Assembly: GCA_030679895.1 (NCBI GenBank)
Contig: JAUXSN010000003.1
Location: forward strand, 5,517-69,516
Length of the DNA stretch: 64,000 bases
Source of the DNA: Candidatus Moraniibacteriota bacterium
Lineage (GTDB): Bacteria; Patescibacteriota; Minisyncoccia; Moranbacterales; UBA11712
Direction: 5' to 3'
Shown piece by piece: positions 1,843-19,645 of this stretch (position 1 is the first letter of the stretch; each line of letters opens with the position of its first letter). The notes under the pieces were generated by a model. The model was not told the DNA's origin and ran no database searches. It saw only the letters and a list, made by a program, of their open reading frames with translations. The position numbers and the translations under genes were made by a program.

Positions 1843-1853
1843 ATTTTGGCGTC

Positions 1854-4055
1854 TTATTTTTTGGATAATTCCCCGTAGCGCCGATGCAAGAAAGTTTTCA
1901 AAGCGGGAGAAATTGACTTAAAAGGTTTTATCTCCTTATCCCCGTAAAGATCCAGGTATAATTTAGGAACACCTCTGCAAAAATAAGATAATTTGCAATT
2001 TTCACATTTCGATGATTTCGAAAGACGGCCTCTAGCTGTATCACTATAACGATTATAAGTCGAGTCTTCAATAGCTACACCATTTGATGAAATCTTAACG
2101 ACCGCGCTTCTAAGAGCAGGTAAAAAAAGTTCATTAAATTTTTTATTGTCTTTAGCGAACAAAATTTTCAAATATGAATCAGGGAGAACGCAAAAGGGAA
2201 TGTCGAACTTCGCCCTTGGCATGAAAGCTTCCTTATTCAATATCATTCTTATGTCAGCATACCGAGGGCAGACCCGGCCATAATCGGTCGCGTCGGAGTT
2301 CACCGGCCTGACTTTTCTGAAGTCAATCCTGCGAAGTTTTAGTTTTTTTACAATAAATTTATAGATGTCCGGAACAACTGAATAATTTTGTTTCAGCAAA
2401 AGGGAGTGCAGAACTATTTCGACATTCGGATTTTTTTTCAAGTTTTTGATCGCGTTCATCAGTTTATTGAAGCTCCCTTTCGTTCTTGTTATCTGATCAT
2501 GTATTTTTTGGTTTTGGCCATAAATAGGCAATTCAAATCTACCAACGCCCGAGCGCACAATCAAATTTGTGAAAGATCCAGACGCCAGTTCCATCCCCGT
2601 TGTTTCCAAAGATATCTTTTTAAATCCGATTTTTTTCGCGTGCCTGATAATCTGCAAAATTCCGTCGCATTTTAAGGGTTCATTTCCTCCTATGCACAAC
2701 CGCACAGCATCGGGATAACACTCCCTGATGAGCAAGAGATAGAATTTCAAATCGTCGAGATCAAAAACAACTTTTTCATTTTTCATCTTGGAAATTTTGT
2801 CCCGGGAAGAAACAGCTCCCGAGCAAAAAACGCAATTGAGGTCACAATGGGAAACGCCGCTCAGACTCAGCAAGATGCTTGAGTTTTCAGCTATCTCAGC
2901 TGAGAAGGGTCTTAGCATTTTCAAGCCGTTCTCTTTTGCGAAATCGGCCGGCACGCCGTCACATTTTTTGTCGAATTTGCATATATTGCATTTTTGCCCT
3001 TTGGCAAAAAATCTGAAATTTATAAAAAAATAAAAAAAATCAAATATACCGCCTCCTGACAGCTCGCGAATTTTTTTGGAATCGTAGCGACCCGGATTTT
3101 TTTTTGGATAGCAGAAACTATTTTTGAAATTAAGCTTTTTGTCTTGCACCAATTCGCGCAAATCGCGGCAAAATTCATCGGCCGGACAGTGCCGGCACCT
3201 TTCCTCGAAGCAGGGAATTTTTCCTTTTCCGAAAATAAATTCATTAAACATTCCTTCCCAGCATCCCAATACCGTATAGGGATCGAAGGGATAGTGGAAA
3301 AATTTTTCCAAATGATCTAGATACTTTGACGGATATCCATCCAGCTCAACGGTTATGTTCTTTTCGACAGAAAATTTGAGGACTTTTCTTATATAGGACA
3401 TATCCTCATTCGGCCTTGTTATTAGACTGTCACGATTTTTCCAGGCTCTCCCAAGAGGTAAAATTCTGTGCAAATATAATTTATTTATTCCTAATTTTTC
3501 AAAATATTCGACCATTTCAAGCAAATGAAAGAAATTGAGTTTGTTGACTACGACAGAGATATTGACTTTCAAATTTTTCATCTTTATGGCATTTTGCAGT
3601 CCCGCGAACGTTTGCTTGAATGATCCCTTTATTTGAGATTGGGATTCATGCAGTTCTTTGGAATGTCCGTGAATCGAGAAAGTTATTTCGTCCATTCCGT
3701 TGTTGGCCGCCGACATCAAAAAATCGTGATAGGCAAACATTCTTCCATTGGTAACAACTTGAACATGCGAGTAGCCCATTTTTTTAGCCGCACCGATAAT
3801 TTCTATAAAATCCGGATGGATGGTCGGCTCGCCTCCGGAAAAAATGACTTCCTTGATCTTTTTTCCTCTGCCTTCCAGTAATTTATTTTTAATTTCCTGC
3901 TTGGATATTATGGATCCATCCTGATTATCGCTATCCAAACAAAAAAGGCACTTGTTATTGCAAGTTTTTGTCAGCCGGATCCAATGCTTTCGTCCTATCG
4001 AATCCTTCTCTCGACTGGCAATACTGCGGTGTTTCAATATTTTTTTTCTCTCCAT
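1854..4055 (-). CDS. fused tandem double radical SAM protein
   Basis: 733 aa; N-terminal rSAM domain (CNNKCLFCLD, GGEPTIHPDF, C-terminal CRHCPADEFC) plus second rSAM domain (CDLNCVFCSG, GGNEPLKCDG, C-terminal CENCKLSYFCRGVP); paralog of 4066..6141. Confidence 0.75.
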   Translation of the reverse strand: MERKKILKHRSIASREKDSIGRKHWIRLTKTCNNKCLFCLDSDNQDGSIISKQEIKNKLLEGRGKKIKEVIFSGGEPTIHPDFIEIIGAAKKMGYSHVQVVTNGRMFAYHDFLMSAANNGMDEITFSIHGHSKELHESQSQIKGSFKQTFAGLQNAIKMKNLKVNISVVVNKLNFFHLLEMVEYFEKLGINKLYLHRILPLGRAWKNRDSLITRPNEDMSYIRKVLKFSVEKNITVELDGYPSKYLDHLEKFFHYPFDPYTVLGCWEGMFNEFIFGKGKIPCFEERCRHCPADEFCRDLRELVQDKKLNFKNSFCYPKKNPGRYDSKKIRELSGGGIFDFFYFFINFRFFAKGQKCNICKFDKKCDGVPADFAKENGLKMLRPFSAEIAENSSILLSLSGVSHCDLNCVFCSGAVSSRDKISKMKNEKVVFDLDDLKFYLLLIRECYPDAVRLCIGGNEPLKCDGILQIIRHAKKIGFKKISLETTGMELASGSFTNLIVRSGVGRFELPIYGQNQKIHDQITRTKGSFNKLMNAIKNLKKNPNVEIVLHSLLLKQNYSVVPDIYKFIVKKLKLRRIDFRKVRPVNSDATDYGRVCPRYADIRMILNKEAFMPRAKFDIPFCVLPDSYLKILFAKDNKKFNELFLPALRSAVVKISSNGVAIEDSTYNRYSDTARGRLSKSSKCENCKLSYFCRGVPKLYLDLYGDKEIKPFKSISPALKTFLHRRYGELSKK

Positions 4056-4065
4056 CGAATAATAC

Positions 4066-6141
4066 TCACCGCTTAGAATGATTTTTTATGGGCGTGAATT
4101 CGGAATCACCGTATAAATTGAGGTAGGCTTCAGGGACTCCCTGGCAATAGCTGTCTAATTCACATTTTTCACATTTTTCGCATTTGGAAAAACCGGCTGG
4201 TTTCGTCTCTTGATCGCCAAAGTCATTTACTTTTATACCCGCCGCGGAAATTCTCACCATCTTGATAGAATTGTCGAAAAGATCGCGCCTTCTGTCGGCC
4301 GGCAAAAGGCAAAAGGGCAGCTCGATTCTGGCCCCGGGTGCCAGCTTGGCACCGCTGAATGCTTTTTTGATTTCAGAATAACGGGGACAATTTCGCGCAT
4401 AATCCGCCAAATCGCTGCTTCGAGGCAATAGTTTTCTGAAACTCAATTTTCCGACGCCTAGATTCCTAGTGACATAATCATGGATCTCAAGAACAAACGA
4501 ATAATTTTTTTTCAGAAGCAATGTGCGCATCTCTATTTCAACTCCCGGATAATCTTTTAGGATTTTCACCGCCTTAATCAGACGGGAAAAACTTCCCTTT
4601 CTGCCCGTTATTGAATCGTGCAATTTGGCGTTATGGCCGTAAATAGGCAACCTGAAACTCCTCACGCCCGCACCGATCAACTCTTTGACTTTTTTTTCGT
4701 CGACCAGCCCAAAGCCGGTGCTGGACAAGGCAATTTCCCGAAAACCCAATTTTTTCGCGTATCCGACCAGTTCGACCAAGTCGGGACAATTGAGAGGTTC
4801 GTCTCCGGTGACAATCAATTTCCCCGCCGAAAAAAATTTTCGGGCTTCGGCCAAATTTCGTTTTATTTTTTCCAAACCGGGATGATGTTCTTCATTTTTC
4901 TTGGGACGCAAAGTCCGGAAACAAAATATGCAGCGCAAATCGCATTTCGTTATTTCCTTGAGATCAAGGAAAAACTCCGTATTTTTTCCCCTTCCCGAAA
5001 CCAAGGGTTTCAGAATTTTCAATCCTTTTTCTATGACATAATCGCAAGGGGCGCCGTCGCATTTTTTTTTCAGATCGCAAAATTCGCATTTTTCGCTTTT
5101 GATGAAATATCTGTTGTCGATGAAGAAGTCCAACAGACGGAAGAGGCTGGCTTGGAGATTTTTTTTGTTTATTTTGATTGTCTTTTCTTCCATTTTATCC
5201 GGAACACAAATAGGCATTTTTTTGGAAACCAGCTTTCCTTCTTTTTTGAAACGGATCAGGTCGTCGCAAAAATCGCCAAGGAAGCAATGGACGCATCTTT
5301 CTCCACGGCAGGACATTTTTCGCCCGTTCTTCAAAAAATCTTCGAACATTCTTTGTCTTCCCTTTACTTCATCATGCATCTTTTTCGGATTTTGAATCAG
5401 ATCCTCAAAGCCTTCAAGATACCGGGGAGGAAACCTATTGGTCCAGATGAATATTTCCCGATTTTTTGAAAATTGAAAGGCCTCTTTCAAGTTTGGCAGG
5501 GCTTTTTCGATGTCATAAAACAATTTATTTCTGTTTTCCCAGGCTCTGCCAAAAGGAATGATTTGGAGAAGATCAAACTCTCGCACGCCAAAATTGATGA
5601 AATATTTGAGGATATCCGCCAAATTTTCAACATTCATTCCGTTTATAACAATATCCTGATTGACAATCAGGCCGTCAACGACAAGCGCGTTTTTGAGACC
5701 GATTAGCGCTTGTTTGAATGACCCTTTGATTTGCGTGAGGCTGTCATGAAGTTCTTCCGTATGGCCATGGATGGAAAAAGTTATTTCATTAACACCCGCT
5801 CTGATGGAAGAAATAAGAAAATCCCGATAAGCAAACATTCGGCCGTTTGTTATGACTTGAATATGCTTGTATCCCATATCTTTCGCCATTTTGACAATTT
5901 CAATGAATTCCGGATGAATGGTTGCTTCTCCGCCACTCAGAACAACCTGATCGATTTTTTTCTTTCTGCCTTCTCGAAATTTTTCCCTGATTTCATCTTG
6001 AGTCAAAACAGTTCCGTTCTGTGCTTCTTTGTCCAGACAAAAAATACAGTTGTTGTTGCAAACTCTAGTCAAACGAACCCAATGCTTTTTTTTCGCGGCC
6101 GCCTGCTCTTTTTTTTCGATTTTCAGGAAGTTTTTTTTCAT
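4066..6141 (-). CDS. fused tandem double radical SAM protein (paralog of 1854..4055)
   Basis: 691 aa; CNNNCIFCLD + GGEATIHPEF and second domain CDLRCIFCFR + C-terminal CEKCEKCELDSYCQGVP; collinear with neighbour. Confidence 0.75.
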   Translation of the reverse strand: MKKNFLKIEKKEQAAAKKKHWVRLTRVCNNNCIFCLDKEAQNGTVLTQDEIREKFREGRKKKIDQVVLSGGEATIHPEFIEIVKMAKDMGYKHIQVITNGRMFAYRDFLISSIRAGVNEITFSIHGHTEELHDSLTQIKGSFKQALIGLKNALVVDGLIVNQDIVINGMNVENLADILKYFINFGVREFDLLQIIPFGRAWENRNKLFYDIEKALPNLKEAFQFSKNREIFIWTNRFPPRYLEGFEDLIQNPKKMHDEVKGRQRMFEDFLKNGRKMSCRGERCVHCFLGDFCDDLIRFKKEGKLVSKKMPICVPDKMEEKTIKINKKNLQASLFRLLDFFIDNRYFIKSEKCEFCDLKKKCDGAPCDYVIEKGLKILKPLVSGRGKNTEFFLDLKEITKCDLRCIFCFRTLRPKKNEEHHPGLEKIKRNLAEARKFFSAGKLIVTGDEPLNCPDLVELVGYAKKLGFREIALSSTGFGLVDEKKVKELIGAGVRSFRLPIYGHNAKLHDSITGRKGSFSRLIKAVKILKDYPGVEIEMRTLLLKKNYSFVLEIHDYVTRNLGVGKLSFRKLLPRSSDLADYARNCPRYSEIKKAFSGAKLAPGARIELPFCLLPADRRRDLFDNSIKMVRISAAGIKVNDFGDQETKPAGFSKCEKCEKCELDSYCQGVPEAYLNLYGDSEFTPIKNHSKR

Positions 6142-6158
6142 ATCAGCGTGGGAAAAAT

Positions 6159-7577
6159 TTATTTTTTCGCCATCGATTCATAAGCGAAAAAGGAAGCAAA
6201 AATGAATTTTTCTCCGGAATCTTTGAAGAAAAGTTCAAAGACGCCCTTTTTTTCTCTCATTTTTTTCTTTTTTTTCAAGGCGTTCATCGCATAAGGGAAA
6301 ACATCGATGATCTCCTTGTCGAATATTCCGGCGAATTCTCTCGGGCGCAGAATATTTCCGTGTTCCATGGAGCTGATGACGAACCTTAGCATTTCATCGT
6401 TCGCCGAAAGTTTTCTCCCGGAGTATATTTTTATTTCCGGATCGAACCTTGATTGGGAAGCACTCTGCTGGTATTCCAGTGTGCCGCGCAGATATGACCT
6501 TGAAAAAGGGCCCAGCCCGAAAGTGGAGGATGGAGAGCTGGATGAAAATTCTCCGCCGTATTCCCTGCCTCGGCTTTTTCGGGGATTGAATTTTTTCAGT
6601 TGCCTTATGTCGTTGAACTGCCAAAAAAAATCCATGGAGCCGAAAGGCCTGGCATCATATCCGTTCTTTCCCGCTATATCATACGCTTTTTTCAACAATT
6701 TCGGAATTTTTTTCGGATAATAGGTTTTGAAATATTGCGGATAATTCATCTTGAAATGGCTGGCCAGATATTTATCACTGGGCGGATAAAGACCATAAAC
6801 TGTTATCGTCGTTGGCCGCATTGCAGTCAATTTTTGAAAGCTATCCGCAAAGGTATCCGGCGTATCAGTGGAAAATCCCGCGATCAGATCAGCGTTGACA
6901 ATATCAAATTTGTTTTTTTTCGCCGTTTCGATGGCCTTCTTGACGGTTTCATATTTTTGAGAATCTCGACGGTTGAACAAAAGGATTTTCTCGCTGAAAG
7001 ACTGCACGCCGAAACTGATTCGATTGAAGCCAAATTTTCTCAAAAGGGATATTTTTGACAATTCGCCGACGCTCGAGTTGAATTCATACGTCCAGATCCG
7101 TTCTTTCGGGTCGTCGGCAAAATTGAAATTTCTGAAAAGGGCGGAAAACAGCTTTTCTATTTGCGCGGAACTCAAGATATTGGGAGTTCCGCCGCCGAAG
7201 TATATGTTTCTGAATTTTATTTTTGAGAAAGTTTTTCGGAAAAAACGGAAATTTTCGATCAAATATTCAACGTATTCATCCAATTTCTTTTCGTCTTTCA
7301 GCTCCCAGGAAGGAAAACTGCAATATTCGCACCGGGAACGGCAAAAGGGCGTGTGAACATAGAAGTTGATATTTCCAAGGACTTCCTGACCCTTGTTCGC
7401 CCGAATAAAATTCTCCCAATATTTTTTGATTTCGGAAGCGGCATACTTTTCATCATATTTTGGAAGCGTATAAAGCCGGCTGATGTTATAGTAGTAGCCG
7501 TTTTTCTCAAGAAAGTCCTTGAAAAAGGAAATCTGTTTTTCCAAATCCCTATTTGATATTTTTGGCGCGTCGGTCAT
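6159..7577 (-). CDS. HemN-like (oxygen-independent coproporphyrinogen oxidase family / class C) radical SAM protein
   Basis: 472 aa; CRSRCEYCSF motif ~70 aa from N-term, GGGTP motif, HemN-like length and C-terminal domain; 4-nt overlap with upstream gene. Confidence 0.7.
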   Translation of the reverse strand: MTDAPKISNRDLEKQISFFKDFLEKNGYYYNISRLYTLPKYDEKYAASEIKKYWENFIRANKGQEVLGNINFYVHTPFCRSRCEYCSFPSWELKDEKKLDEYVEYLIENFRFFRKTFSKIKFRNIYFGGGTPNILSSAQIEKLFSALFRNFNFADDPKERIWTYEFNSSVGELSKISLLRKFGFNRISFGVQSFSEKILLFNRRDSQKYETVKKAIETAKKNKFDIVNADLIAGFSTDTPDTFADSFQKLTAMRPTTITVYGLYPPSDKYLASHFKMNYPQYFKTYYPKKIPKLLKKAYDIAGKNGYDARPFGSMDFFWQFNDIRQLKKFNPRKSRGREYGGEFSSSSPSSTFGLGPFSRSYLRGTLEYQQSASQSRFDPEIKIYSGRKLSANDEMLRFVISSMEHGNILRPREFAGIFDKEIIDVFPYAMNALKKKKKMREKKGVFELFFKDSGEKFIFASFFAYESMAKK

Positions 7578-8515
7578 ATTTTTTTGACTGGCTTAAATTC
7601 TTTCCACCCTCTTCTTCGGACGTAGGCTTCCCAGACTCCGCTGCAGGAGTCAAAAAATCGGCATTCCGCGCACTCCGACCCCTTGATTTTTTTCGGCCAC
7701 TTGACGGAAGTCGGCTTGATCGCTTCTGACTTCGCGTTCTTTCTTCTCACGGCCGATTCATACTCGATAATGTTGCGTTCGGCTCCGGGAAGGACGCAGG
7801 GAGGAAGTCCGAGGACAAGTATTTCCGGACGACGGTTTTTCAGCCGCTTTTCAAACTTTTTCAAAACTCTCGCCACTTCTTTTCCGACTTTGAAATAACG
7901 TGGCACGATCTGCTCAAAGTATCTGTCGGCTCTTCCTTCCGGCAGCACCGTGTTGAATACGATCCCCTCAACGCCGTCGAAAGTCAGCATGAGCCGAAGA
8001 TAATTTTCCATGTCGCGATAATTTATTTTATTCAGCAAAAAATTGACAAAGAATCGGAAAGGGTATTTTTTGGCGAAAAAAGACAAATTGCACAGACCAA
8101 AAAAAGTTTCCTCAAAACTTCCCGGCACTCTCGTAATCGCATCATGCACTTCTTTTTTGCTCCCGTGAAGGGAAACGCTGATCTCGTTGAGGCCGGCTTT
8201 GAGCAAATTCTCGCAGAATTTTTTGTCCGCCAGCTTTCGACCGTTCGTGATGAGATCGACTTTCTTGTAGCCATATTTCATGGCCAGCTTAATAAGATCC
8301 GGAAGGGCGGGATTCAGCGTCGGTTCTCCGGAAGAGAACAAAACCCGGTCAATTTTTCCCCGCATCGCCTTGAGATCATTTTCCGCATATTTCTTCAAAT
8401 TTTTGAATTCGGCCCGATTCTGCTTGTGAAGATCCGAGCAAAACAAGCACCCGTTGTTGCAGTGGGAATTCGTCAAAATATGCAGTCTTTTTTCTTTTAT
8501 CTCTTTGACAGACAT
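7574..8515 (-). CDS. radical SAM protein with C-terminal Cys cluster (partial SPASM/twitch-like)
   Basis: 313 aa; CNNGCLFCSD, SSGEPTLNP, C-terminal CAECRFFDSCSGVWEAY. Confidence 0.75.
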   Translation of the reverse strand: MSVKEIKEKRLHILTNSHCNNGCLFCSDLHKQNRAEFKNLKKYAENDLKAMRGKIDRVLFSSGEPTLNPALPDLIKLAMKYGYKKVDLITNGRKLADKKFCENLLKAGLNEISVSLHGSKKEVHDAITRVPGSFEETFFGLCNLSFFAKKYPFRFFVNFLLNKINYRDMENYLRLMLTFDGVEGIVFNTVLPEGRADRYFEQIVPRYFKVGKEVARVLKKFEKRLKNRRPEILVLGLPPCVLPGAERNIIEYESAVRRKNAKSEAIKPTSVKWPKKIKGSECAECRFFDSCSGVWEAYVRRRGWKEFKPVKKI

Positions 8516-8524
8516 ACTGGTTTT

Positions 8525-9481
8525 TTATTGGACGATTAGTTCCCCGTCCCCAAACTCTTGATAATATTTTTCGAAAATGCCCGGACAAAAATCTTTTTTC
8601 GAGCACCTCAGGCATTTGTCCGGTTTCATGACTCCTTTCAGGGGCTTGAACCCTTCGGTCTCGGCCAAAACGGTCCTTTTGTCCCTTCTAATTTTTTTGA
8701 GGGTGATTTGAAAATGCCATTTAGTGTCACTGGAGCGATCTTTAAGCTCTCCTAGGACACAAACCGGCAAACCGAAAAATTTTATTTTTCGGGATTTTTT
8801 TGCAACCAGTCTCGCGAGTAATGGAATTTTTTTTCTTATTTCGCCCAAAGGCACGACCAGATTCCGATAATTTTCCAGCGCCCGGCCTTCCGGAGCCAGA
8901 CCGGAAAACAATATTTTTTTCACTCTCTTATATCGACTGATAAAATCAATTATTCGGGTGAGTTTGGAAAAGTTATGTTTCGTTATCAAAATCCTCGCTG
9001 AAATTTTTGTTTCTGCCGGAATTTTTTCGACATTTTCCAAAGACTTTTTCAGTATGGAGAAACTTTTTCCGTTTCGAGTATGAAGGTTGTGCAGCCTGTC
9101 GATATGTCCGTAGATTGAGAAAGACAAATAGTCGATATGCGGCATAATTTTTCGGCAAAAATTTTCCTCGGAAAATCTTCCGCCGTCAGAATTGACGAAA
9201 ACCTGATAGCGCAATCTCTTGGCAAGTTTTGCTATTTCCACAATGTCGGGATGCAAAGTCGGCTCCCCGCCGGTGAGAACCAAAAAATTGAAACCCGCTT
9301 TCGCCCGTTTTTTTATCTCCCTTTCCACTTCCGCTTTCGCGACAAACTGGCCCTTGAAGTCTTCCAGCAGATCCTTTTCTCCGCAAAAAATGCAATTGTT
9401 GCGGCAAGAAGAGGAAATATAAAATTCCAGGCGTTTGATTTCGCTGTTTCTTTCTTCAATATTTCGTATATTTTTTTTCAT
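8525..9481 (-). CDS. radical SAM protein with C-terminal Cys cluster
   Basis: 318 aa; CRNNCIFCGE, TGGEPTLHP, C-terminal CLRCSKKDFCPG. Confidence 0.75.
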   Translation of the reverse strand: MKKNIRNIEERNSEIKRLEFYISSSCRNNCIFCGEKDLLEDFKGQFVAKAEVEREIKKRAKAGFNFLVLTGGEPTLHPDIVEIAKLAKRLRYQVFVNSDGGRFSEENFCRKIMPHIDYLSFSIYGHIDRLHNLHTRNGKSFSILKKSLENVEKIPAETKISARILITKHNFSKLTRIIDFISRYKRVKKILFSGLAPEGRALENYRNLVVPLGEIRKKIPLLARLVAKKSRKIKFFGLPVCVLGELKDRSSDTKWHFQITLKKIRRDKRTVLAETEGFKPLKGVMKPDKCLRCSKKDFCPGIFEKYYQEFGDGELIVQ

Positions 9482-10878
9482 TTCTTTCTTTCGTTATTTT
9501 TTTCGATCATTTTTTTCCTAATATCATTTTCACTAAAAAAGAACATGCAAGCGGCAAAGCGATCAATCGGTTCCTCCGGGAAAAAAACCCGATCTCCTTG
9601 GAATCTTATCTTCCCTATTTTTTTCAAGCCGTTTATTCCGTCGGCAAAAATTTCTTTGAAATCCGCTCCGAAATGCTTCGCGAAACCTTTTCGAGAAAAG
9701 CACCGCTCATGAGATAGTTTTTGCAGGATAAAGTTTCTCATCTCCCCCCGCTCGCCCAGCCTGACAGCTTTGTAGTCAAGACTATTTGAGTTGAAATTGA
9801 AATTGTCTCTCCCGTCTTTTGTGTAGTAATATTGCAAATCCTTGAAAATATAGGCGTTTGCCCGGCTACCGAGCGCGAAAAGGGACTGAGAACTTGAAGG
9901 GGAAGGCGAGAAATTATACACGTTTCCCAAAATTTTTTTATTCTTGAGCAAAAATTTATATCCGATAGAGTCATAGACCACGAATTTTGACTCAATCATT
10001 TCATAATTATGCTTATCCGCTTCGGCCTTAAACTGTTTTTTAATTTTCCTGAACTTTTCGCTTATTTTTTTTCTCTCCCGGCTCTGAAAACTTTCCGAGC
10101 GGAGCCCAAAATAGCCATTCGGGGGACGAAAACGATAGACGATTATCGAATCCGGCCGTAAGTCGGCCAGGCCGGAAAAACTGCTCAGAATCGAACTAGC
10201 ATCGTCTCCTCGCAAGCCGACCATCAAATCAACGTTTATTTCAAATTTCAATTTTCGGGCGCTTTGGATCACCTCTTTTATCTTGGAAAACTCTTGATAT
10301 CCGCGCAAAGCGGAGTTTAGCACATTTTTGTCCAAACTTTGAACGCCGAAGCTGATTCTGTTGAAGCCGAAATCTTTTATTATTTTCAGCTTTTTTTTAT
10401 CAATGCTTTCTGGGTTTCCTTCAAAAGTTTTTTCTCCCCGTTTCTCGAAACTGAAATACTTTTTCAGATTTCCCACGAGTTCCATGAGTTGTTTTTCCGA
10501 CAAAATAGACGGAGTTCCTCCGCCGATATATAGATTGTCTATTTTTTTACTCTTAAAAACTTCTCGGAAAAAAGAAATTTGTTTTTTTAAATTTTTCAAA
10601 TAACTTTCAATCTCCCTGTCGACCGGAACTTTCGAAAAATACGGGCAATAATTGCATTTGGATCGGCAAAATGGAATATGAACATAAAAATTCAAGATTT
10701 CTTTCGAACTCTCTTTTGAATCCAGATGGATATTCCAATGATTCCTTATCTGTCCGGCGCTCAGGACGCATTCTTCTCCGAACCAGCGGATAAGATCCGT
10801 CAGAAAAAAATTGTCATAAAAAGACTTATGATTCGATAAAAAAAATTTGTATGAATTGTATCTTTCCTGAGAGTTCAT
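9478..10878 (-). CDS. HemN-like radical SAM protein (paralog of 6159..7577)
   Basis: 466 aa; CRSKCNYCPY, GGGTPS; 4-nt overlap with downstream gene. Confidence 0.7.
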   Translation of the reverse strand: MNSQERYNSYKFFLSNHKSFYDNFFLTDLIRWFGEECVLSAGQIRNHWNIHLDSKESSKEILNFYVHIPFCRSKCNYCPYFSKVPVDREIESYLKNLKKQISFFREVFKSKKIDNLYIGGGTPSILSEKQLMELVGNLKKYFSFEKRGEKTFEGNPESIDKKKLKIIKDFGFNRISFGVQSLDKNVLNSALRGYQEFSKIKEVIQSARKLKFEINVDLMVGLRGDDASSILSSFSGLADLRPDSIIVYRFRPPNGYFGLRSESFQSRERKKISEKFRKIKKQFKAEADKHNYEMIESKFVVYDSIGYKFLLKNKKILGNVYNFSPSPSSSQSLFALGSRANAYIFKDLQYYYTKDGRDNFNFNSNSLDYKAVRLGERGEMRNFILQKLSHERCFSRKGFAKHFGADFKEIFADGINGLKKIGKIRFQGDRVFFPEEPIDRFAACMFFFSENDIRKKMIEKNNERKK

Positions 10879-10895
10879 GCTGGCAACTTTTTATG

Positions 10896-11792
10896 TCATT
10901 TGAGTCCGACAGCCCTAAATTCTTTCCAGCCAAATTTTTCCGGATATTCCCGCCACGGACCTTCACATATCGCGTTGTGACGGCATTTGGCGCACTGCGG
11001 ACCTTTCATCTTCCCTTCTTTCCGACGAGCTTCGGCGAAATCTTCAACCACCGATTTGAAGTCGTATATTTTGGTCGGCGGAATATATTTTTCTGCCACG
11101 TAGTCTTCATAGCCTTTCATAAAACAAAATGGAATGGCTTCGGTCATCACGACTTTTTTCTTTTTTATGCCGATGTCCAATCCCGCTTTCACATAGGGTT
11201 CCGTCAGAGCCATCCTCGGCACAATGGATTCAAAATTTTCCCCTGCGTTTCCGGTCGCGTGAACAAAAGCGAATTGATATTGATCAACGTCTAAAGAGAC
11301 CAGAAGTTCTGCTATTTCCGGCAAATGCCGGTAATTAGACCTGGTTATCACTGTGTTGGTAATAACTTCCTGACCGAGCAATTTCAGGTTCCTTATCCCC
11401 TGCACCGTTTGCGCGAAACTTCCCCGAGCGGTGGTCAGATAATCATGGAGTTCTCCAATGTGCCCATGCAGAGCTGGTGAAAATTCGGTCGCTCCCGCCC
11501 TGATGGTTTTTTTGCAAAAGTCCGGATAGGAAAACATCCTGCCGTTGCTTTGAATTTGAATTAGTTTAAAACCGATATTTTTCGCAAAGCTTACAAGGCT
11601 GAGAAAGTCAGGTCTTATTGTCGGCTCTCCTCCCGTAAACACAATTCCGTCGCACTCGGCTACGGCTTCTTTCATTTCTTTTTTTATTTGCTTAATATCC
11701 TTATCTTTGAATTGGATCCTTTTTCTCCCCTGCACGCAAAAAAGGCAATGGTTGTTGCAAGAAAATCCAACTTTTAGATCCGCTTTTTTCAT
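10896..11792 (-). CDS. radical SAM protein with C-terminal Cys cluster
   Basis: 298 aa; CNNHCLFCVQ, TGGEPTIRP, C-terminal CAKCRHNAICEGPW. Confidence 0.75.
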   Translation of the reverse strand: MKKADLKVGFSCNNHCLFCVQGRKRIQFKDKDIKQIKKEMKEAVAECDGIVFTGGEPTIRPDFLSLVSFAKNIGFKLIQIQSNGRMFSYPDFCKKTIRAGATEFSPALHGHIGELHDYLTTARGSFAQTVQGIRNLKLLGQEVITNTVITRSNYRHLPEIAELLVSLDVDQYQFAFVHATGNAGENFESIVPRMALTEPYVKAGLDIGIKKKKVVMTEAIPFCFMKGYEDYVAEKYIPPTKIYDFKSVVEDFAEARRKEGKMKGPQCAKCRHNAICEGPWREYPEKFGWKEFRAVGLK

Positions 11793-12700
11793 AAAGATGA
11801 AATTTTATCCACAAAATCGCTAAGAGCCCTGTCGACTTTCCTCGTGGAATCCAAAATCTGCCTAGAAAAGGTTCTTTTGAAAAGAAAATCGAAATCGAAC
11901 TCCAGGGGAAACTGAACAATGCTTTTCCAGTCATTCGTGTTTTGAATATTACCTAATTTCAATTCTTTCCGCCAGCCCGAAAAGCGCTTGTCCAGAAAAA
12001 AATTTCCGAAATACACATCCCCTTCGGGATCAATAACCGGGGACATATTAAACAAAGGCACGGGCGAAAATGATTTAATATTTTTTACCTGGATGCCGTC
12101 TGGATGGGATTTTATTTCCTTCTCAATGACTTTGAAATTGTCACGGAGAGAACTTATGCTTTTTTCGGACCAATCCGTATAATAAGCCGGCAAAAAATTG
12201 AATCGCCTAAATCCTTTTTTTCTTAGTTCCGAAAAAAGATCTTTTGACTGCCTCATGTTGTCCGGCAAAAGATTGATATTGACCGTCATGAGCGGAAGGC
12301 GTGATATGTTTTTTATGAATTCATCGTCATCGAATATTTTTGAGTAACTGGAACTTATGATAATTTCAAAATTTGGAAATTTTTTGAGATAGTCTGCGAT
12401 TTTTTTGTCGAGAAGCAATCCATTCGTCGTGAGATTGAAATCCGCTTTTTTCGCTTTTTTTCCTAATCGCGCCACGAGTCCCTTTACCAAACCGAAATTG
12501 AGAAGCGGCTCCCCCCCAAAAAAACGAATAAGAGGCCTCACGGAACGATTATTTTTCCCCTCTAAAAACAAAGAAGCAGCCCTTGAAGCCGTTTCTAAGT
12601 TCATGCTTCTATTTGTTTTTCTTACCTGGCAATGACTGCAATTCAGATTGCACTTTAGGGTTGTCACCAAAACCAAACTTTGATCATCGAGTTTCGACAT
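11789..12700 (-). CDS. radical SAM protein
   Basis: 303 aa; CNLNCSHCQV, FGGEPLLN; resembles second domain of the fused double rSAMs; 4-nt overlap (ATGA) with downstream gene. Confidence 0.7.
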   Translation of the reverse strand: MSKLDDQSLVLVTTLKCNLNCSHCQVRKTNRSMNLETASRAASLFLEGKNNRSVRPLIRFFGGEPLLNFGLVKGLVARLGKKAKKADFNLTTNGLLLDKKIADYLKKFPNFEIIISSSYSKIFDDDEFIKNISRLPLMTVNINLLPDNMRQSKDLFSELRKKGFRRFNFLPAYYTDWSEKSISSLRDNFKVIEKEIKSHPDGIQVKNIKSFSPVPLFNMSPVIDPEGDVYFGNFFLDKRFSGWRKELKLGNIQNTNDWKSIVQFPLEFDFDFLFKRTFSRQILDSTRKVDRALSDFVDKISSL

Positions 12701-12781
12701 TGATAGCTGAAAAATAATTGATGCAGAATTTTTTTTCTTATTTTTTTATTTTCGGAAATTATTCAGCCAAGGATCTGGATA

Positions 12782-13063
12782 TTACCAGCTGCCGTGAGAA
12801 CCATGCGATCCGTGAGCTCCGTGCGATCCGTGCGATCCGTGCGATCCGTGAGATCCGTGAGATCCGTGAGAAGCATGGGCACAAGTCGCATTGGCCAGTT
12901 TCTCATTCGGCTTCATTATCCCTGCCAGAACTGCGGCGCTGGCGACCACCACCATTCCGATTTTCATCACGCTTTCCTTGCTAATATTCCCTTCTTCGCT
13001 GGTCAAGAAGGCCTGGATGTTCTTTTTTATCTTAGGTATCCTTGTTTTTTTTGATTCACTCAT
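12782..13063 (-). CDS. His-Gly-Ser (His-Xaa-Ser-type) repeat precursor peptide; probable true start at internal ATG (12967) with signal-peptide-like N-terminus
   Basis: ORF ends ...ANATCAHASHGSHGSHGSHGSHGSHGAHGSHGSHGSW; internal ATG (MKIGMVVVASAAVLAGIM..., 61 aa) is preceded by AAGGAAAG 5 nt upstream, the 13063 start has no SD; sits in middle of rSAM operon. HxsA (His-Xaa-Ser repeat protein) analogy from recollection of TIGRFAMs Hxs system. Confidence 0.6.
   Translation of the reverse strand: MSESKKTRIPKIKKNIQAFLTSEEGNISKESVMKIGMVVVASAAVLAGIMKPNEKLANATCAHASHGSHGSHGSHGSHGSHGAHGSHGSHGSW
12803..12872. repeat. 9-bp tandem repeat (cgtgcgatc/cgtgagatc, ~8 units) encoding the HGS repeats
   Basis: Direct reading: catgcgatccgtgagctccgtgcgatccgtgcgatccgtgcgatccgtgagatccgtgagatccgtgagaagc. 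Confidence 0.9.
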
Positions 13064-13088
13064 AAATTAAGATTAGATCTTAAAAATT

Positions 13089-14099
13089 TTATTTTGCTCC
13101 GGTAGCTTCGAAAAGCAGTTGGAGACGGTCTAGATTATAATAATCGTCGCATTTTTCCTCGCTGAAGTTCAACATTTTCCGACAGTCGAAATTAGGATCA
13201 AAATATAGCTTATAAACGCTATAATAGTCGCGGTGGGAAATTTCTTCCAGTATCGCCGGATTATTGTCTCTCACAGTTCTCGCAAAATAAGCAAGCTGAA
13301 AACATTTATACCAAAGGTCTTCTCCCACTCCACCCTGCTCGACCGATCCCCCTTGCGAAGCCCTGGGAAGATTTTTCATGACGTCGCAGGCCGCATAATC
13401 TCTCTTGTTTATGGCAAGGCACAATGCCTGAGTCAAGGAACCTTTGGGAAAACTCGCGCAATCGCTCTCTGATTTACTCATGACCAACGATTGGCACAGA
13501 TTTTGGCAATCATCCTCTCCTGAATTTTTGCAAGCCTGGACAAATTCGACCGAGCAATTTCCTGCTTTCATGCTTGGTAATATACTTTCGAGATACAGCT
13601 TGACCCTGTATTCACAATGCGACAATACCATCGGATCCGGAATACTTTTGCAGTATCCGATATTCTTTTCCTTTATGGCAGAGCAAATTAGAAAATTTTC
13701 TGTTTTGAACGGATTTATTCTAAACATTTCGGAGGCCAGGAGAATAATATCTTTTGTTTCTTTTCCGGAAAGACCTTCAAGCCTTTTCTTGCAAGCGTCT
13801 CTCTCCGCCCAAAAATAGGTTTCCACTTCCTGCCGGCTTTTCCCCTTCAATTTTTCTGTTTCGAAAGAAACATCTGCCTGACTTTTTTGCTCATATGGCG
13901 AAGGTTCCATGATCTCGGCGGGAACAGCCAAGAGCGCTTTTTTATTTTGAGAAGGAATATCCTCTATTGTTTTATGCGGAATATTTTGAGAGTCGTTGCT
14001 AAAAAATAAATATTTTACTCCCAAAAACAACCCGGCCAAAACCAGCAAGACAACGAATGCGATTAATACTTCCTTTAGTTTTTTATTTTCGATTACCAT
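13089..14099 (-). CDS. membrane-anchored Cys-rich protein of unknown function (cluster-associated)
   Basis: 336 aa; N-terminal TM helix (LIAFVVLLVLAGLFLGV), >20 Cys in extracytoplasmic part; between precursor and rSAM/SPASM gene. Confidence 0.5.
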   Translation of the reverse strand: MVIENKKLKEVLIAFVVLLVLAGLFLGVKYLFFSNDSQNIPHKTIEDIPSQNKKALLAVPAEIMEPSPYEQKSQADVSFETEKLKGKSRQEVETYFWAERDACKKRLEGLSGKETKDIILLASEMFRINPFKTENFLICSAIKEKNIGYCKSIPDPMVLSHCEYRVKLYLESILPSMKAGNCSVEFVQACKNSGEDDCQNLCQSLVMSKSESDCASFPKGSLTQALCLAINKRDYAACDVMKNLPRASQGGSVEQGGVGEDLWYKCFQLAYFARTVRDNNPAILEEISHRDYYSVYKLYFDPNFDCRKMLNFSEEKCDDYYNLDRLQLLFEATGAK

Positions 14100-14185
14100 T
14101 TTGATTATTTATATCATAAATTACAAACCTAGAAAAGACAATAAACAGCAAAGTGCTTCGGCGTTCGTATTTTTTGAAAAAGGTA

Positions 14186-15688
14186 TCAGTCCGGTATTTT
14201 CTGATAATTTTTTTTACTGCACTCTATTTCTTTTTTTGCCCATTTTTCAAGGATCTTTTTCTTCTTTTTGTCTTTCAAGTAGCTGAAAATCAGGTCAAAA
14301 ATAGATTTGTTTATTATGCATCTCAGGCTGTTGGGCTGTTGGCAAAAAACATTTCCGGTTTCAGCAAAGTTGTGGATGGGACAAATTCCGCAATAAGGCT
14401 GATAAACGCAGTGCGAACAGCCCGCCTGGCAACTTGTCTCCGAGGCTACACACATGCTCTTCAGGGCCGGGCTGTCGATGATTTCCGAATAAACGTTTTG
14501 GGCGACGGTTCCCAGTCTAAACATTTCTTGCCCTGAGTAGCCCATCATTCTGCCTTCATCGCAAGTATAAATATCACCATTGAAATCATAGGCAAGTTGT
14601 CCGATCCCGGCTCCGCAAGGAGAACGGAGCTCCAGATAATTCGGATCGTCATCCGTCAAAATCTTTGAAACAACAATTGAGGCCGTCCTTTCATAAAATC
14701 TTTTTCCCGACTGGTTGATTTCCAAAATATAATCCAGAGCTTTTTTATAGAAATCAAGATATTCTTGAGGCTTATATCCCATCTTTGACCAAGCTTTTCC
14801 GGCTGTTCCCAACGGGCTCAAGGGACGGAGAAATATAGTATCAAAACCCCATTTTAAATATTCATCCACTATTTCTTTCGGGTGCTCAAGAGAGAATCGA
14901 CTCACCGTAACGAGTGCTCCGGGCTGAAAAAAATAATATTTCCCTCTAATTTTCTTCCGCTCAATCCTCCGGTATTCATCCATGGCTTGCTTCAGCCATT
15001 TTGTCGTTTCCTCATAGCTGTTTTTGCGGGGAAGCGGGCGATTTCTGTTATGAATAGCTTCCGGACCGTCGAGCGAGGTGCAAAGCGCCACGTGATTTCT
15101 GAAGAAAAAACGCAGTTTCTCCTTGTCCATCAGGGAAAAATTGGAAACGAGTCGGAGCTCCAGGCTTTTTTTCTCGATTTTATTTTTTTCTTTGGCATAT
15201 TCAACAATAAACTTGACTATCGGCCAATTAAGAAGAGGCTCCCCTCCCTGAAACTCAATGGCGACGTTGTTATTCGGCGTGCTGAAAATAAAATCGACTA
15301 CTTGCTTAGCCGTTCCAAGGCTCATGTCAAATTGGGAGCTAGTCACTCCTTTCGCACTAGCCTGGCAGTAAACACAGCTGTAATTGCAGCGCAGCGTCAC
15401 AACAACGATATGAAGACTCGGCCCTCCAAAAAGATTCTGGTGTTTTTTTTGGTATTTTTCAATGTATTTGTCAAAATTTATTTTGTCGCGGATGAAATTT
15501 TTTTTCGCCAATTCTTTGTAGGACGCACTTTTTGAGCTGATTTTTCCCTCGATGAATTTTCCAAAATTATTTTCGTCCAAAAAAGCGTATTCTCCCGCAT
15601 CATTCGTGAGAAGATATTCTTTTCCCAACTTTCTATAACGGAAAAAGCCTACTGTTGAGTGATCTATCTTATCCGGATTGAATTTCAT
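14186..15688 (-). CDS. radical SAM/SPASM-domain peptide maturase (HxsB/HxsC-like)
   Basis: 500 aa; CNYSCVYCQA rSAM motif, FQGGEPLLN, SPASM-type C-terminal clusters CGAGIGQLAYDFNGDIYTCDEG and CQAGCSHCVYQPYCGICP; ~90 aa N-terminal extension. Confidence 0.8.
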   Translation of the reverse strand: MKFNPDKIDHSTVGFFRYRKLGKEYLLTNDAGEYAFLDENNFGKFIEGKISSKSASYKELAKKNFIRDKINFDKYIEKYQKKHQNLFGGPSLHIVVVTLRCNYSCVYCQASAKGVTSSQFDMSLGTAKQVVDFIFSTPNNNVAIEFQGGEPLLNWPIVKFIVEYAKEKNKIEKKSLELRLVSNFSLMDKEKLRFFFRNHVALCTSLDGPEAIHNRNRPLPRKNSYEETTKWLKQAMDEYRRIERKKIRGKYYFFQPGALVTVSRFSLEHPKEIVDEYLKWGFDTIFLRPLSPLGTAGKAWSKMGYKPQEYLDFYKKALDYILEINQSGKRFYERTASIVVSKILTDDDPNYLELRSPCGAGIGQLAYDFNGDIYTCDEGRMMGYSGQEMFRLGTVAQNVYSEIIDSPALKSMCVASETSCQAGCSHCVYQPYCGICPIHNFAETGNVFCQQPNSLRCIINKSIFDLIFSYLKDKKKKKILEKWAKKEIECSKKNYQKIPD

Positions 15689-15924: not shown

Positions 15925-16383
15925 TTACTTATTCTTTTTTTGTTTTTCTTTGGCTTTTTTAGCATGCTTTTCTTCCCAAGGGACAGCGATTTCCAAAGGA
16001 TCTTCTCGCCAATCAACCGTCTCTTCTTCAGACCTTGAAGATTGGGCGATGACATTGCTTGGCAGACTTGACACCAGAGAAGCGGCTACTATATATTCTC
16101 TTATTTTCTGGTTATTTTTCGCAACTTCTATCCGAAGAAGATAATTCAAAAGTTCATTGAGAAACTCTCCTTTGAGCGCTTCCAGCTGCTTTTTGTCCAA
16201 TCTTTCTTTTCCTTTCAGCGAAATGAGTATTTCTTTTTCCGGATCGCCGTCGAGATGAACATAGACCCTATCTATAAACACATAGGCCGCATTGAGTATC
16301 GCCTCCAGCGGATAGTTTTTACTATTTAGCCGAAAAACGATTTGATTTTCCTTTATATTGATTTTACTTTTTGGATTTTGCAT
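15925..16383 (-). CDS. hypothetical protein (first gene of rSAM operon; possible HxsD-like accessory)
   Basis: 152 aa ORF, no recognisable motif; position only. Confidence 0.45.
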   Translation of the reverse strand: MQNPKSKINIKENQIVFRLNSKNYPLEAILNAAYVFIDRVYVHLDGDPEKEILISLKGKERLDKKQLEALKGEFLNELLNYLLRIEVAKNNQKIREYIVAASLVSSLPSNVIAQSSRSEEETVDWREDPLEIAVPWEEKHAKKAKEKQKKNK

Positions 16384-16464: not shown

Positions 16465-17520
16465 TTAATTTGTTTCTACCCATCCGCAGGAACGGCTATT
16501 GCCGGCATGGCATACGGTCGTGCTGGTTGGACAAATGCCGTTGCAATTCCACGTCCATTCCGTGTAGTTATTTTCTAAACTTCCGGCCTGGTATAGGGAG
16601 TTTGGAGAACACAAATTGTCCGAATCGGGCTGGGTTTCTTTGTAGCAATAATTTTGTCCGCTCGCGTCGCCACATGTGGGGGCAATTATTTCCGTAAAAC
16701 TTCTAGAGCATGCTTTGTCTAGAGCCGTCTGGTTGCACTTTGCCGAGCAAGTCCAATTCCATCCAGTTGTTCCGTCTCCAGTGACGACGGGAGGTCTAGT
16801 TGGATCGTAAATGGTGCATAGCCTGGATGGGTCCAGTGTGATGCTGCTGCCCGAACAAATTGTGTCGCTCATGACGCTTCCGCAGTTGGGCGCCTCGATG
16901 ATTGGAGCCTGTGCCGTGCAAGAAGCCGACACACCGCCGCCTGAGCCGGAACATATCCATGACCACGTTGTTCCAGCGGCCCCGGATCCGGAAACTGCCG
17001 GCGGATTAAGCAGGCTATATTTCAAGCAAAGTTCCGGATATTGCAGGCTAGGTAAGCTGTAAGGACAATATGAGTTTCCGTTTGAAGTTCCACATTCGCC
17101 ATCTCTCCTATTGATAACAAAGGTTCCAACAGCCTGCGGCGTCCAGTCGCCATAATATCCGTAAACACTGACCCGCGCGGCATAAAATGGGCTGATATTC
17201 ATAGGCAAAATCCCAGGCGGTATATAATGAGTGTAATTTCCCGGATTTGTACTTGGCGGTACGACTGCTCCTGAATTGTATACCTGAGTATATGTTTTTG
17301 TTCTAAGGTTCCATTTATCCACCTGAACCTGATAGTAGTAAAAAGGATTGCCCGATACGCCAAAATTAATATCGGGCCAAGCGGGATCAAAAATATTTAG
17401 ATTATCAGCAACGCATACAGTAATATTTGTTCCCGGATTCAAGGCATGAACATTATCAGGACAATAAAATAACAATACGAGACAAACAAAAAATAATATC
17501 GATCCGATTTTCTTTATCAT
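16465..17520 (-). CDS. secreted Cys-rich protein with TG(T/W)xWxC repeats
   Basis: 351 aa; signal peptide MIKKIGSILFFVCLVLLFYCPDNVHA; repeats GTTWSWICSG / GTTGWNWTCS / YTEWTWNCNG; N-terminus paralogous to 37632..38225. Confidence 0.55.
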   Translation of the reverse strand: MIKKIGSILFFVCLVLLFYCPDNVHALNPGTNITVCVADNLNIFDPAWPDINFGVSGNPFYYYQVQVDKWNLRTKTYTQVYNSGAVVPPSTNPGNYTHYIPPGILPMNISPFYAARVSVYGYYGDWTPQAVGTFVINRRDGECGTSNGNSYCPYSLPSLQYPELCLKYSLLNPPAVSGSGAAGTTWSWICSGSGGGVSASCTAQAPIIEAPNCGSVMSDTICSGSSITLDPSRLCTIYDPTRPPVVTGDGTTGWNWTCSAKCNQTALDKACSRSFTEIIAPTCGDASGQNYCYKETQPDSDNLCSPNSLYQAGSLENNYTEWTWNCNGICPTSTTVCHAGNSRSCGWVETN

Positions 17521-18921: not shown

Positions 18922-19635
18922 TTATTGGTCGATGCCTTTTCTCCAAGGCCGGATCTCCCGCGCCCAAAAAATTCCTTCCTCTTTTTCTTCACCGATCACT
19001 TTTACTTCTTTCCCTATTCTGATAATAGCCGGTTCTTGCTCTATTGTTTCGCCATCCGCCTCAACCTGCCAAAAAGTCCCCTTGAAATCCTCAAGGCCGA
19101 AATTTTGCTCGTCCTTGATTTCAATAATTTTTCCACCCAGGAGCCCGATTGTCGGCTGATCCCAGATATCTTTGCGATGGCTGCAGCAGGCCGCCTTTTC
19201 GTAAAGAGGAACGCTTGAGATTGCAAAATCTTCAATTTTCTCTCCCACTCCCAATGTGTGAAGAAAGGTGCCCAAAATGACGCTCCCGGCTATGCTTAGA
19301 AGCAAAATTATATAGGTTTCATGGCGATAACCGTCCTTGGTATGCTTATAATTATAAAAGGCCAGCGCCAGAAATAAGATCAGAAATAAGATCCAAAGAT
19401 ACGGGATCGAAAGCATAATGTGCCCGACAACACTGGTATGAAGATATTTATAAAGATCCCAATCATTATTGAAGAAAACGTAGAGCATCGTGCAGAAGGC
19501 CAGGGATCCAATAAAAATTGAAACAATGAACATAGCCCAGGTAAAATAATTTTTCATAAGAAAACGCCAGCGGGGTTTCGGCGCGATTTTCTCTTCCTTG
19601 ATCTTCTCGATGACTTTTTTCCCGATCTCTCCCAT
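18922..19635 (-). CDS. membrane protein, putative anti-sigma factor partner
   Basis: 237 aa, TM segments after a short N-terminal region, immediately downstream of ECF sigma gene; function inferred from context only. Confidence 0.45.
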   Translation of the reverse strand: MGEIGKKVIEKIKEEKIAPKPRWRFLMKNYFTWAMFIVSIFIGSLAFCTMLYVFFNNDWDLYKYLHTSVVGHIMLSIPYLWILFLILFLALAFYNYKHTKDGYRHETYIILLLSIAGSVILGTFLHTLGVGEKIEDFAISSVPLYEKAACCSHRKDIWDQPTIGLLGGKIIEIKDEQNFGLEDFKGTFWQVEADGETIEQEPAIIRIGKEVKVIGEEKEEGIFWAREIRPWRKGIDQ

Positions 19636-19645
19636 ATATTTTTGG

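Follow-up and report, generated by a model that had tools for sequence, protein, structure and literature searches.

The window analysed here, a 64-kb stretch of DNA from Candidatus Moraniibacteriota bacterium (contig JAUXSN010000003.1), contains on its reverse strand a small open reading frame (ORF), hxsA4, which probably encodes the ribosomal substrate of an Hxs (His-Xaa-Ser) maturation system based on radical S-adenosylmethionine (SAM) enzymes. In this reading, whose probability is estimated at roughly 0.7, the product is the 93-aa form, which would be bound through its leader, modified and exported by the Sec pathway, with a role drawn from analogy with the Escherichia coli system. The system is of a known kind, in a variant unusually rich in radical-SAM enzymes. 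NCBIfam already contains the HxsA4 family and its partner enzymes by name, and the genes next to hxsA4 in this very locus have labels as well: the NCBI annotation pipeline (PGAP) names HxsB, HxsD and HxsD-like on proteins identical to those of the window, in a Candidatus Moranbacteria metagenome-assembled genome (MAG).

The HxsA4 peptide, its repeat and its family

The hxsA4 ORF shows an ATG start and a TAA stop and encodes the sequence MSESKKTRIPKIKKNIQAFLTSEEGNISKESVMKIGMVVVASAAVLAGIMKPNEKLANATCAHASHGSHGSHGSHGSHGSHGAHGSHGSHGSW. Since an in-frame TAA is located two codons 5' of the ATG, these 93 aa are the longest possible form. The C-terminus reads CAHA-(SHG)6-AHG-(SHG)2-SW, in which nine [S/A]HG triplets (aa 65-91, 27 residues, positions 12871-12791 of the window) are followed by Ser-Trp. 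A first-pass annotation of this ORF had described 27 C-terminal repeat residues with one Ala-for-Ser substitution and a terminal Trp, and the translation bears this out. The H-G-S repeat that it reported is present, but its count of eight units is one too few, as there are nine triplets, or ten units when they are read as H-x-S/A. The 9-bp DNA tandem repeat that it placed at 12803-12872 is also real, although these limits fall a few bases short at the 3' end: Tandem Repeats Finder locates it at 12792-12871, with a period of 9, 8.9 copies and 87% matches, and ranks it as the top-scoring tandem repeat of the whole window. The 9-bp units are arranged in blocks, three copies of TCTCACGGA and three of TCGCACGGA, then GCTCACGGA, TCGCATGGT and TCTCACGGC, and such runs of identical units mark recent local duplication. 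At period 9, the longest exact self-match covers 24 nt and none of 20 shuffles exceeds 10 nt, and therefore chance does not explain the repeat. Pfam gives on the 93-aa peptide only a sub-threshold collagen-repeat match and no peptidoglycan-binding domain, and an exact look-up of the 93-, 74-, 62-, 61- and 57-aa forms in a collection of 15 billion proteins retrieves no match. The accession number MDP1845166, which lies between those of the neighbouring proteins, is unaccounted for.

The NCBIfam model of HxsA4, NF038313, matches the peptide with 59.4 bits against a curated cut-off of 55 (E 4.9e-16), aligning profile positions 2-93 to aa 9-93. The next models remain below their own cut-offs: HxsA3 with 57.7 bits against 65, HxsA2 with 29.9 against 48, and HxsA with 16.9 against 121.65. 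The designation as a precursor peptide in the first-pass annotation holds, as the peptide passes the HxsA4 model and is placed between HxsB/HxsD and further radical-SAM genes, an arrangement which recurs in dozens of genomes. A search among 5.8 billion proteins retrieves 417 homologues, mostly metagenomic, with Patescibacteria, Omnitrophota, Elusimicrobiota and Actinobacteria among the source names; several of them bear the NCBI name HxsA4 (P0039, P0042 and P0145) and show leader, hydrophobic segment and repeat laid out as here. The family shows a Lys-rich N-region with a median of 33 aa and a net charge of +6, which contains the leader motif lPKIKKxIkaFLtSEEGkIsK in 120 of 121 members. It is followed by an uncharged hydrophobic region (h-region) with a median length of 16 aa (range 9-22), a junction of small residues which often precedes a Cys (C61 is at least 90% conserved in alignment A1), a core of 4 to 52 H-x-S units, and an end motif which is GQW, GSW, SSY or (R/S)GGWC.

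The 1,106 H-x-S units taken from 121 family peptides show at position H+1 Gly (54%), Ser (19%), Ala (16%) and others, with Gly, Ser and Ala together in 89%, and at position H+2 Ser (90%), Ala (6.4%) and Asn (2.7%), with Gly in none. Since H+1 is free and H+2 is Ser, Ala or Asn but never Gly, the functional register is H-x-S, and the third position of the unit needs a side chain. In the peptide of the window, the X position is Gly or Ala, and the repeat zone (aa 63-93) shows no Lys or Arg. When its repeat codons are compared with those of the related loci L005 and L002, there are 13-19 synonymous-only differences and 1-3 amino-acid changes, a pattern which points to selection of the repeats as protein.

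The alignment of homologous precursors, a check proposed with the first-pass annotation, shows a conserved leader and a variable repeat count across related genomes. Within clusters at 90% identity, leader and end motif are identical and the unit counts are 19/15/10, 21/17/16/13/9, 18/15/13/11 and 21/14/10, so that the predicted proneness to unit-number variation is supported, with collapse by the assembler as a caveat. Short-read metagenome assemblers mishandle or collapse such repeats, and an independent short-read assembly of this locus in a Logan contig (L086, 8050-8301) ends inside the 9-bp repeat; counts derived from metagenomes need caution.

A search with the leader only gives 75 matches (P0155-P0229), 52 of which show fewer than four H-x-S units or none. 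Some of these have a core which ends in GGWC, others a core with HTN motifs, and there are also two long fusions, P0182 with 484 aa and P0221 with 522 aa, the latter showing Cys/His repeats of the HSNCH type. Some related loci contain two distinct precursors with the same leader each, such as L007 at 12280-12714 and 20615-20869, and L044 at 11532-11894 and 13382-13750; the cores of L044 are Asp/His-rich and not H-x-S. That the leader is also borne by precursors lacking H-x-S runs is a hint of a wider family.

Proposed leader recognition, maturation and function

The hxsB gene is located on the same strand, 1.1 kb upstream of hxsA4. HxsB shows a CX3CX2C motif at C101 and SPASM-type Cys motifs at 420-433, and along its entire length shares 38% identity with the annotated HxsB of Aeromonas. 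Its AlphaFold2 model, built with 48 homologues (predicted local distance difference test, pLDDT, 88.9; predicted template modelling score, pTM, 0.89), contains an N-terminal domain of three strands and three helices (beta3-alpha3) ahead of the radical-SAM barrel and the SPASM region. The best Foldseek matches are CteB, TigE and SuiB, with 490-500 aligned columns, and anSME aligns over about 405 columns. CteB, TigE and SuiB are maturases of peptides made by the ribosome and modified after translation (RiPPs), and carry an N-terminal RiPP recognition element (RRE), a peptide-recognition domain, and anSME is RRE-less. By this structural model, the N-terminal RRE-like domain of HxsB would bind the conserved leader of HxsA4.

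The proposed maturation would start in the cytoplasm, where the leader would be bound by the RRE-like domain of HxsB, possibly along with both proteins of the HxsD type. The H-x-S units would be modified covalently by HxsB and by the HxsC-like and HemN-like enzymes encoded downstream, for which the side chain of His and the third residue, with its C-beta, are the likely reaction partners, and the modified peptide would be exported via Sec and cut near ANA↓TC. The product would be roughly TCAHA(SHG)9SW, a peptide of about 34 residues consisting nearly throughout of modified H-x-S units, either released or surface-associated. The in-frame 9-bp repeat would let the unit number expand or contract with the frame intact. 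For the role, an envelope-located defensive or protective function, taken from E. coli, is the leading guess and the weakest step of this explanation.

The E. coli HXS system (hxsD-B-C-A; Li et al., Nat Commun 2026, PMC13128918) blocks the entry of phage DNA. E. coli HxsA is periplasmic by experiment, is anchored to the peptidoglycan and is proposed to bind DNA through its basic H-x-S repeats; its processing depends on HxsB, HxsC and HxsD, and its modification amounts to +8 Da on SHRSS, for which the His and both flanking Ser are essential (PMC13128918). The survey in the same paper finds 99.7% of the systems in Pseudomonadota and did not find the system in Patescibacteria (PMC13128918). The same four-gene system is annotated on the Aeromonas plasmid NC_009349. 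The locus of the window resembles the E. coli system in the presence of HxsD and in a substrate with tandem H-x-S units and a putative N-terminal export signal. However, canonical HxsA has about 190-214 aa, a plain signal peptide of 22 aa, a central group of five basic HRS/HSS units and a C-terminal peptidoglycan-binding domain, which is also found in the HxsA of Aeromonas, whereas HxsA4 has 93 aa, an extra conserved leader of 33 aa and ten non-basic HGS units at the C-terminus. Canonical HXS has one HxsC, and the operon of the window has seven HxsC-like domains, two HemN-like proteins and one other radical-SAM protein. The HxsA4 type is found in Patescibacteria, Elusimicrobiota and Omnitrophota, unlike the Pseudomonadota-centred E. 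coli HXS. The NCBIfam models of HxsA4 and its partners reportedly trace to the in silico His-Xaa-Ser system of Haft and Basu in 2011. The peptide, HxsB, HxsD and HxsD-like of the window all pass the curated cut-offs of this set, from which the Parcubacteria sub-clade found here departs in that an orphan membrane protein of 336 aa is inserted between hxsB and hxsA4. Two related occurrences are in phage records: Leptospira phage KF114877 (L087, 3233-6542) contains a complete hxsA-hxsD-hxsB-hxsC set beside an IS66 transposase, with a 99-aa HxsA showing HRS/HSS repeats, and MT837156.1, a 7.5-kb human-gut contig named 'Bacteriophage sp.', encodes an HxsB 41% identical to that of the window.

For the chemistry, one comparison is with triceptides, RiPPs with three-residue cyclophanes which radical SAM/SPASM enzymes form on aromatic-X-X motifs, and in which links from His-C2 to the C-beta of residue 3 are known on HAA, HNR and HTK motifs (PMC11499958). 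HxsA4 shares with them a repeated three-residue motif with His first, a third residue which always bears a C-beta and a free middle residue, and the maturase is likewise a radical SAM/SPASM enzyme with an RRE-like domain. The exclusion of Gly from position 3 fits the logic of a His-C2/C-beta cyclophane, as far as this analogy goes. Unlike triceptide maturases, HxsB lies outside the cyclophane-synthase families (YhhB, 56 bits vs 445; XyeB, 49 vs 450; GrrM, 48 vs 310), and the only mass shift measured for an Hxs product is the +8 Da of E. coli, against -2 Da for a cyclophane.

Several points weigh against the assignment of HxsA4 as an exported Hxs substrate with an envelope role. The role is only a guess because HxsA4 shows neither the peptidoglycan-binding domain nor the basic repeat residues which serve anchoring and DNA binding in the E. 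coli model, and because the neighbourhood is not a recognisable defence island: PADLOC finds there no defence family, only a generic viperin-like radical-SAM similarity. The HxsC-like proteins score 85-221 bits against the 500 of HxsC4 (NF038332), and their best HxsC score is 156 against 267.9 (TIGR03977). The hydrophobic segment of 16-18 aa could also serve as an anchor which is not cleaved off, passage through Sec could be impeded by bulky cross-links, as has been remarked for bufferins (PMC11626156), and the differences in repeat number may partly be assembly artefacts. In the literature searched, there is no description of, or experiment on, any HxsA4-type system, and no account of an HxsA4-type extra leader, of a hypervariable unit number or of a large radical-SAM complement.

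A broader interpretation is possible, although doubtful. The HxsA4 clusters would not be a small variant of E. coli HXS but a large superfamily of export-coupled RiPPs in Patescibacteria, Elusimicrobiota and Omnitrophota, where a leader dedicated to recognition, of the type KIKKxIxxFLxSEEGKIsK, is fused upstream of the Sec signal and serves diverse cores. Every H-x-S triplet would be turned into a new cross-linked or rearranged residue by as many as 12 radical-SAM domains, and the result would be a poly-modified surface peptide of variable length on ultra-small episymbionts.

The main rival of the Hxs-substrate reading, which is unlikely, takes the mature product as an exported metal-binding peptide, a metallophore or metal buffer similar to bufferins, whose (modified) imidazoles would chelate Cu, Zn or Ni outside the cytoplasm. 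The ten His at a fixed spacing of three residues, preceded by a conserved Cys and followed by Trp, Tyr or Cys, are consistent with such a function, RiPP precursors with Sec signals which act as periplasmic copper chelators are established (bufferins, PMC11626156), and locus L004 has CutA1, DsbD, thioredoxin-like and Cu-oxidase_4 genes just upstream. Like bufferins (PMC11626156), HxsA4 would be a ribosomal peptide modified in the cytoplasm which apparently uses the general Sec pathway and no dedicated exporter; unlike them, it shows a separate conserved leader ahead of the signal-like segment, and radical-SAM enzymes with His/Ser repeats instead of MNIO/DUF692 enzymes with Cys-motif cores. Metal-related neighbours are not recurrent across the 80 related loci, an unmodified His-rich tail would already bind metal and would leave the 12 radical-SAM motifs unexplained, and the sole characterised Hxs system is antiphage.

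The remote rival, with very little probability, is a multi-core precursor in which each H-x-S triplet would be converted and excised, giving many copies of a small His-derived molecule, cofactor-like in the manner of pyrroloquinoline quinone (PQQ) or mycofactocin, so that the unit number would set the yield. This would accord with a unit number which varies from 4 to 52 with nothing else changing, with the exceptional number and diversity of radical-SAM enzymes, HemN-like ones included, and with the strict conservation of both presumed chemistry positions. However, no peptidase is conserved in the cluster, the conserved signal-like segment and end motifs (GQW, GSW, SSY, GGWC) favour an intact exported peptide, and E. 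coli HxsA acts as a processed protein.

The assignment of HxsA4 as an Hxs substrate gives a small, unannotated-looking ORF its place as the substrate peptide of a catalogued system, with its true start fixed. In a genome-reduced bacterium of the candidate phyla radiation (CPR), about 16 kb are devoted to a single 93-aa peptide and 12 radical-SAM motifs. The sole data point on Hxs product chemistry is the +8 Da found in E. coli, and HxsA4 may suit chemistry work better than E. coli HxsA, which is prone to inclusion bodies; it may be a cleaner substrate because it is short and soluble-looking and has ten near-identical units. If the defence role carries over, the system would be an envelope-level antiphage device in Patescibacteria.

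Start codon, putative export signal and the Cys junction

An internal ATG at 12967 behind AAGGAAAG, a hydrophobic run (MKIGMVVVASAAVLAGIM) and one single Cys (C61) are all in the sequence, as the first-pass annotation described. Of the two starts which it considered, the comparison with homologues argues that the 93-aa form is the one translated and that the internal ATG is not the start. The 61-aa form, a plain Sec signal peptide plus repeats with the upstream 32 codons untranslated, is highly improbable. Its attraction is the Shine-Dalgarno-like AAGGAAAG located 4 nt before ATG 12967, with no such motif before ATG 13063. The 93-aa start is preferred because the region upstream of the internal ATG is conserved and M33 is not, because this region diverges as a coding region does, and because the motif consists of mere codons in a genome poor in Shine-Dalgarno sequences. 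The segment aa 1-32 is the best-conserved part of the family (alignment A1): it contains six of the 11 invariant columns (M1, P10, F19, L20, E23 and E24), G25 is also invariant and within it, and the NCBIfam profile begins at aa 9. In place of M33, the homologues have A, V, Q, L, I or E. When codons 1-32 are compared with those of the two nearest relatives, 13 and 7 differences are synonymous-only and 12 and 13 are replacements, respectively (13/12 vs L005), a coding-type, synonymous-biased divergence. The 'good' Shine-Dalgarno sequence that the first-pass annotation saw at 12967 does not stand, as AAGGAAAG corresponds to the codons AGC AAG GAA AGC (Ser-Lys-Glu-Ser), and 27 of 30 genes sampled in the window, including every operon gene, have nothing resembling a Shine-Dalgarno motif in the 20 nt which precede the start. 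The upstream regions of the genes of the window are simply A/T-rich, and start calling based on Shine-Dalgarno motifs is unreliable in this genome.

The signal-peptide-like segment of the same annotation is real and conserved, with a median h-region of 16 aa and the -3/-1 small-residue rule satisfied in 61 of the 67 members of the Cys type, those in which the Cys is directly after the small-residue junction (67/121 members). HxsA4 itself shows a positive n-region, a 16-aa h-region and ANA↓T, which in the window continues as ANA↓TC, and these features suggest Sec export and cleavage by signal peptidase. The hydrophobic segment appears too short for a typical membrane anchor. No exporter or transporter is conserved in the clusters of the 80 loci. 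Lipoprotein processing as in DAG-RiPPs, by which Cys61 would be the +1 lipidated residue and the modified repeats would be tethered to the membrane by lipid, is rejected as scarcely credible in spite of the Cys right after the small-residue junction in 67/121 members and of the RiPP-lipoprotein hybrids now known (PMC13056109), since a canonical lipobox, [LVI][ASTVI][GAS]C, is found in 5/67 members only (N-A-T-C in the window), 66/67 show a charged residue in the 10 aa preceding the Cys, an unusual feature for a lipoprotein signal peptide, and many family members have no Cys.

The hxs operon and its surroundings

The gene order on the reverse strand is the 351-aa protein, HxsD, HxsD-like, HxsB, the 336-aa orphan, hxsA4, nine further radical-SAM genes and an APH-like kinase (Table 1). 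The further radical-SAM genes include one of 303 aa, three single and two fused-double HxsC-like genes, and two HemN-like genes. Ten operon genes contain 12 CX3CX2C motifs in about 14 kb (1854-15688).

Table 1. Features of hxsA4 and of the surrounding genes in the 64-kb window.
Feature	Position	Strand	Basis and remarks
hxsA4, 93-aa His-Xaa-Ser repeat precursor peptide	12782..13063, stop codon included	-	ORF listing, NF038313 profile match, 417 homologues
Terminal Trp93	12785-12787	-	
Core, ten H-x-S/A units, aa 63-92	12788..12877	-	H-x-S register; one A-for-S
Junction, aa 51-64 (KPNEKLANATCAHA), A-x-A type putative site ANA↓TC, single Cys61 (in ATCAHAS)	12872..12913	-	Sequence, family alignment
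Hydrophobic segment, aa 35-50 (IGMVVVASAAVLAGIM), Sec signal-peptide h-region-like	12914..12961	-	Mean Kyte-Doolittle 2.44
Conserved leader motif, aa 10-29 (PKIKKNIQAFLTSEEGNISK), within Lys-rich N-region aa 1-34	12977..13036	-	Family alignment A1
ECF-type (extracytoplasmic function) sigma factor, then 237-aa protein without family match	19646-20230 (sigma factor); 18922-20230 (pair)	-	
351-aa secreted-looking Cys-rich protein (21 Cys)	16465..17520	-	Directly upstream of hxsD; no family match
hxsD	15925..16383	-	TIGR03976, 64 bits vs cut-off 50; NCBI HxsD, MDP1845170.1
HxsD-like small protein, 67 aa	15712..15915	-	NF038315, 72.7 bits vs 41; NCBI HxsD-like, MDP1845169.1
hxsB, radical SAM/SPASM maturase, N-terminal RRE-like domain	14186..15688	-	TIGR03978, 538.5 bits vs 370; NCBI HxsB, MDP1845168.1
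Orphan 336-aa protein between hxsB and hxsA4, N-terminal transmembrane helix and Cys-rich (14 Cys) helical region	13089..14099	-	
Radical SAM protein, 303 aa, one CX3CX2C, no auxiliary-cluster motif	11789..12700	-	Pfam Radical_SAM; best NCBIfam matches, N-terminal halves of RiPP maturases
HxsC-like radical SAM, 298 aa	10896..11792	-	HxsC4 164 bits, HxsC 107 bits, both below cut-off; CX3CX2C and C-terminal CX2CX5C
HemN/HemZ-like radical SAM, 466 aa	9478..10878	-	Best HemZ, HemN and ChuW, all below cut-off
HxsC-like radical SAM, 318 aa	8525..9481	-	Profile and motif
HxsC-like radical SAM, 313 aa	7574..8515	-	HxsC4 205.6 bits vs 500; 23% identical to Aeromonas HxsC, E 5e-9
Second HemN-like radical SAM, 472 aa	6159..7577	-	
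Fused double HxsC-like radical SAM, 691 aa, two CX3CX2C	4066..6141	-	
Fused double HxsC-like radical SAM, 733 aa, two CX3CX2C	1854..4055	-	
APH-like phosphotransferase, TTG start, end of radical-SAM row	904-1842	-	Pfam APH, 24 bits

The related loci, 80 from GTDB genomes, were retrieved through an HxsB alignment. The order HxsD, HxsD-like, HxsB, one extra gene, HxsA4 and several HxsC-like genes is the rule among them, and the order of the window recurs in L002, L003, L004 and L005 and in most of the 80; its 12 radical-SAM motifs are at the high end of their range. The closest genome, a Parcubacteria MAG with an HxsB 73% identical to that of the window, carries the 336-aa and 351-aa genes too. 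The HxsC-like set contains five genes with seven domains, for which the best models are HxsC4 and HxsC, all below the cut-offs, and each domain shows CX3CX2C and a C-terminal CX2CX5C, as does the annotated HxsC of Aeromonas. The APH-like gene at the end of the row could point to phosphorylation of the Ser-rich peptide, or be unrelated.

Among the flanking genes of the 80 loci, enrichment brings out only clade-specific synteny (PhoH, barstar, pilin with prepilin peptidase, response regulator), B12-radical-SAM genes and several unknowns, and no theme of transporters, peptidases, metals or defence. The metal and redox genes of L004, an Omnitrophota HxsA4 locus, are contained in its positions 1-5100, and this flavour is absent from the other loci. 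In the scan for promoters and terminators around the operon nothing is above the shuffle background, with no terminator after hxsA4, and the Rfam scan of the window gives a tRNA-Pro only.

The 336-aa orphan has no Pfam, NCBIfam, PADLOC or PDB sequence match and only two homologues among the 5.8 billion proteins; its AlphaFold2 model is unusable (pLDDT 47). It is found at the same position in L002, L003 and L005, and a weak positional analogue is located in an Elusimicrobia locus (L062, 5762-6727; E 4.6e-5, local profile). The 351-aa protein shows a signal-like N-terminus and Cys residues in repeated CxxxxC / WxWxC-like modules. Its homologues are at the same position, directly upstream of hxsD, in L002, L003, L005 and L013, and its gene may be the first of the operon. 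The sigma-factor pair, of which the 237-aa protein is possibly an anti-sigma factor, shares its strand with the Hxs operon, lies about 1.4 kb upstream of it and is a possible regulator of these genes.

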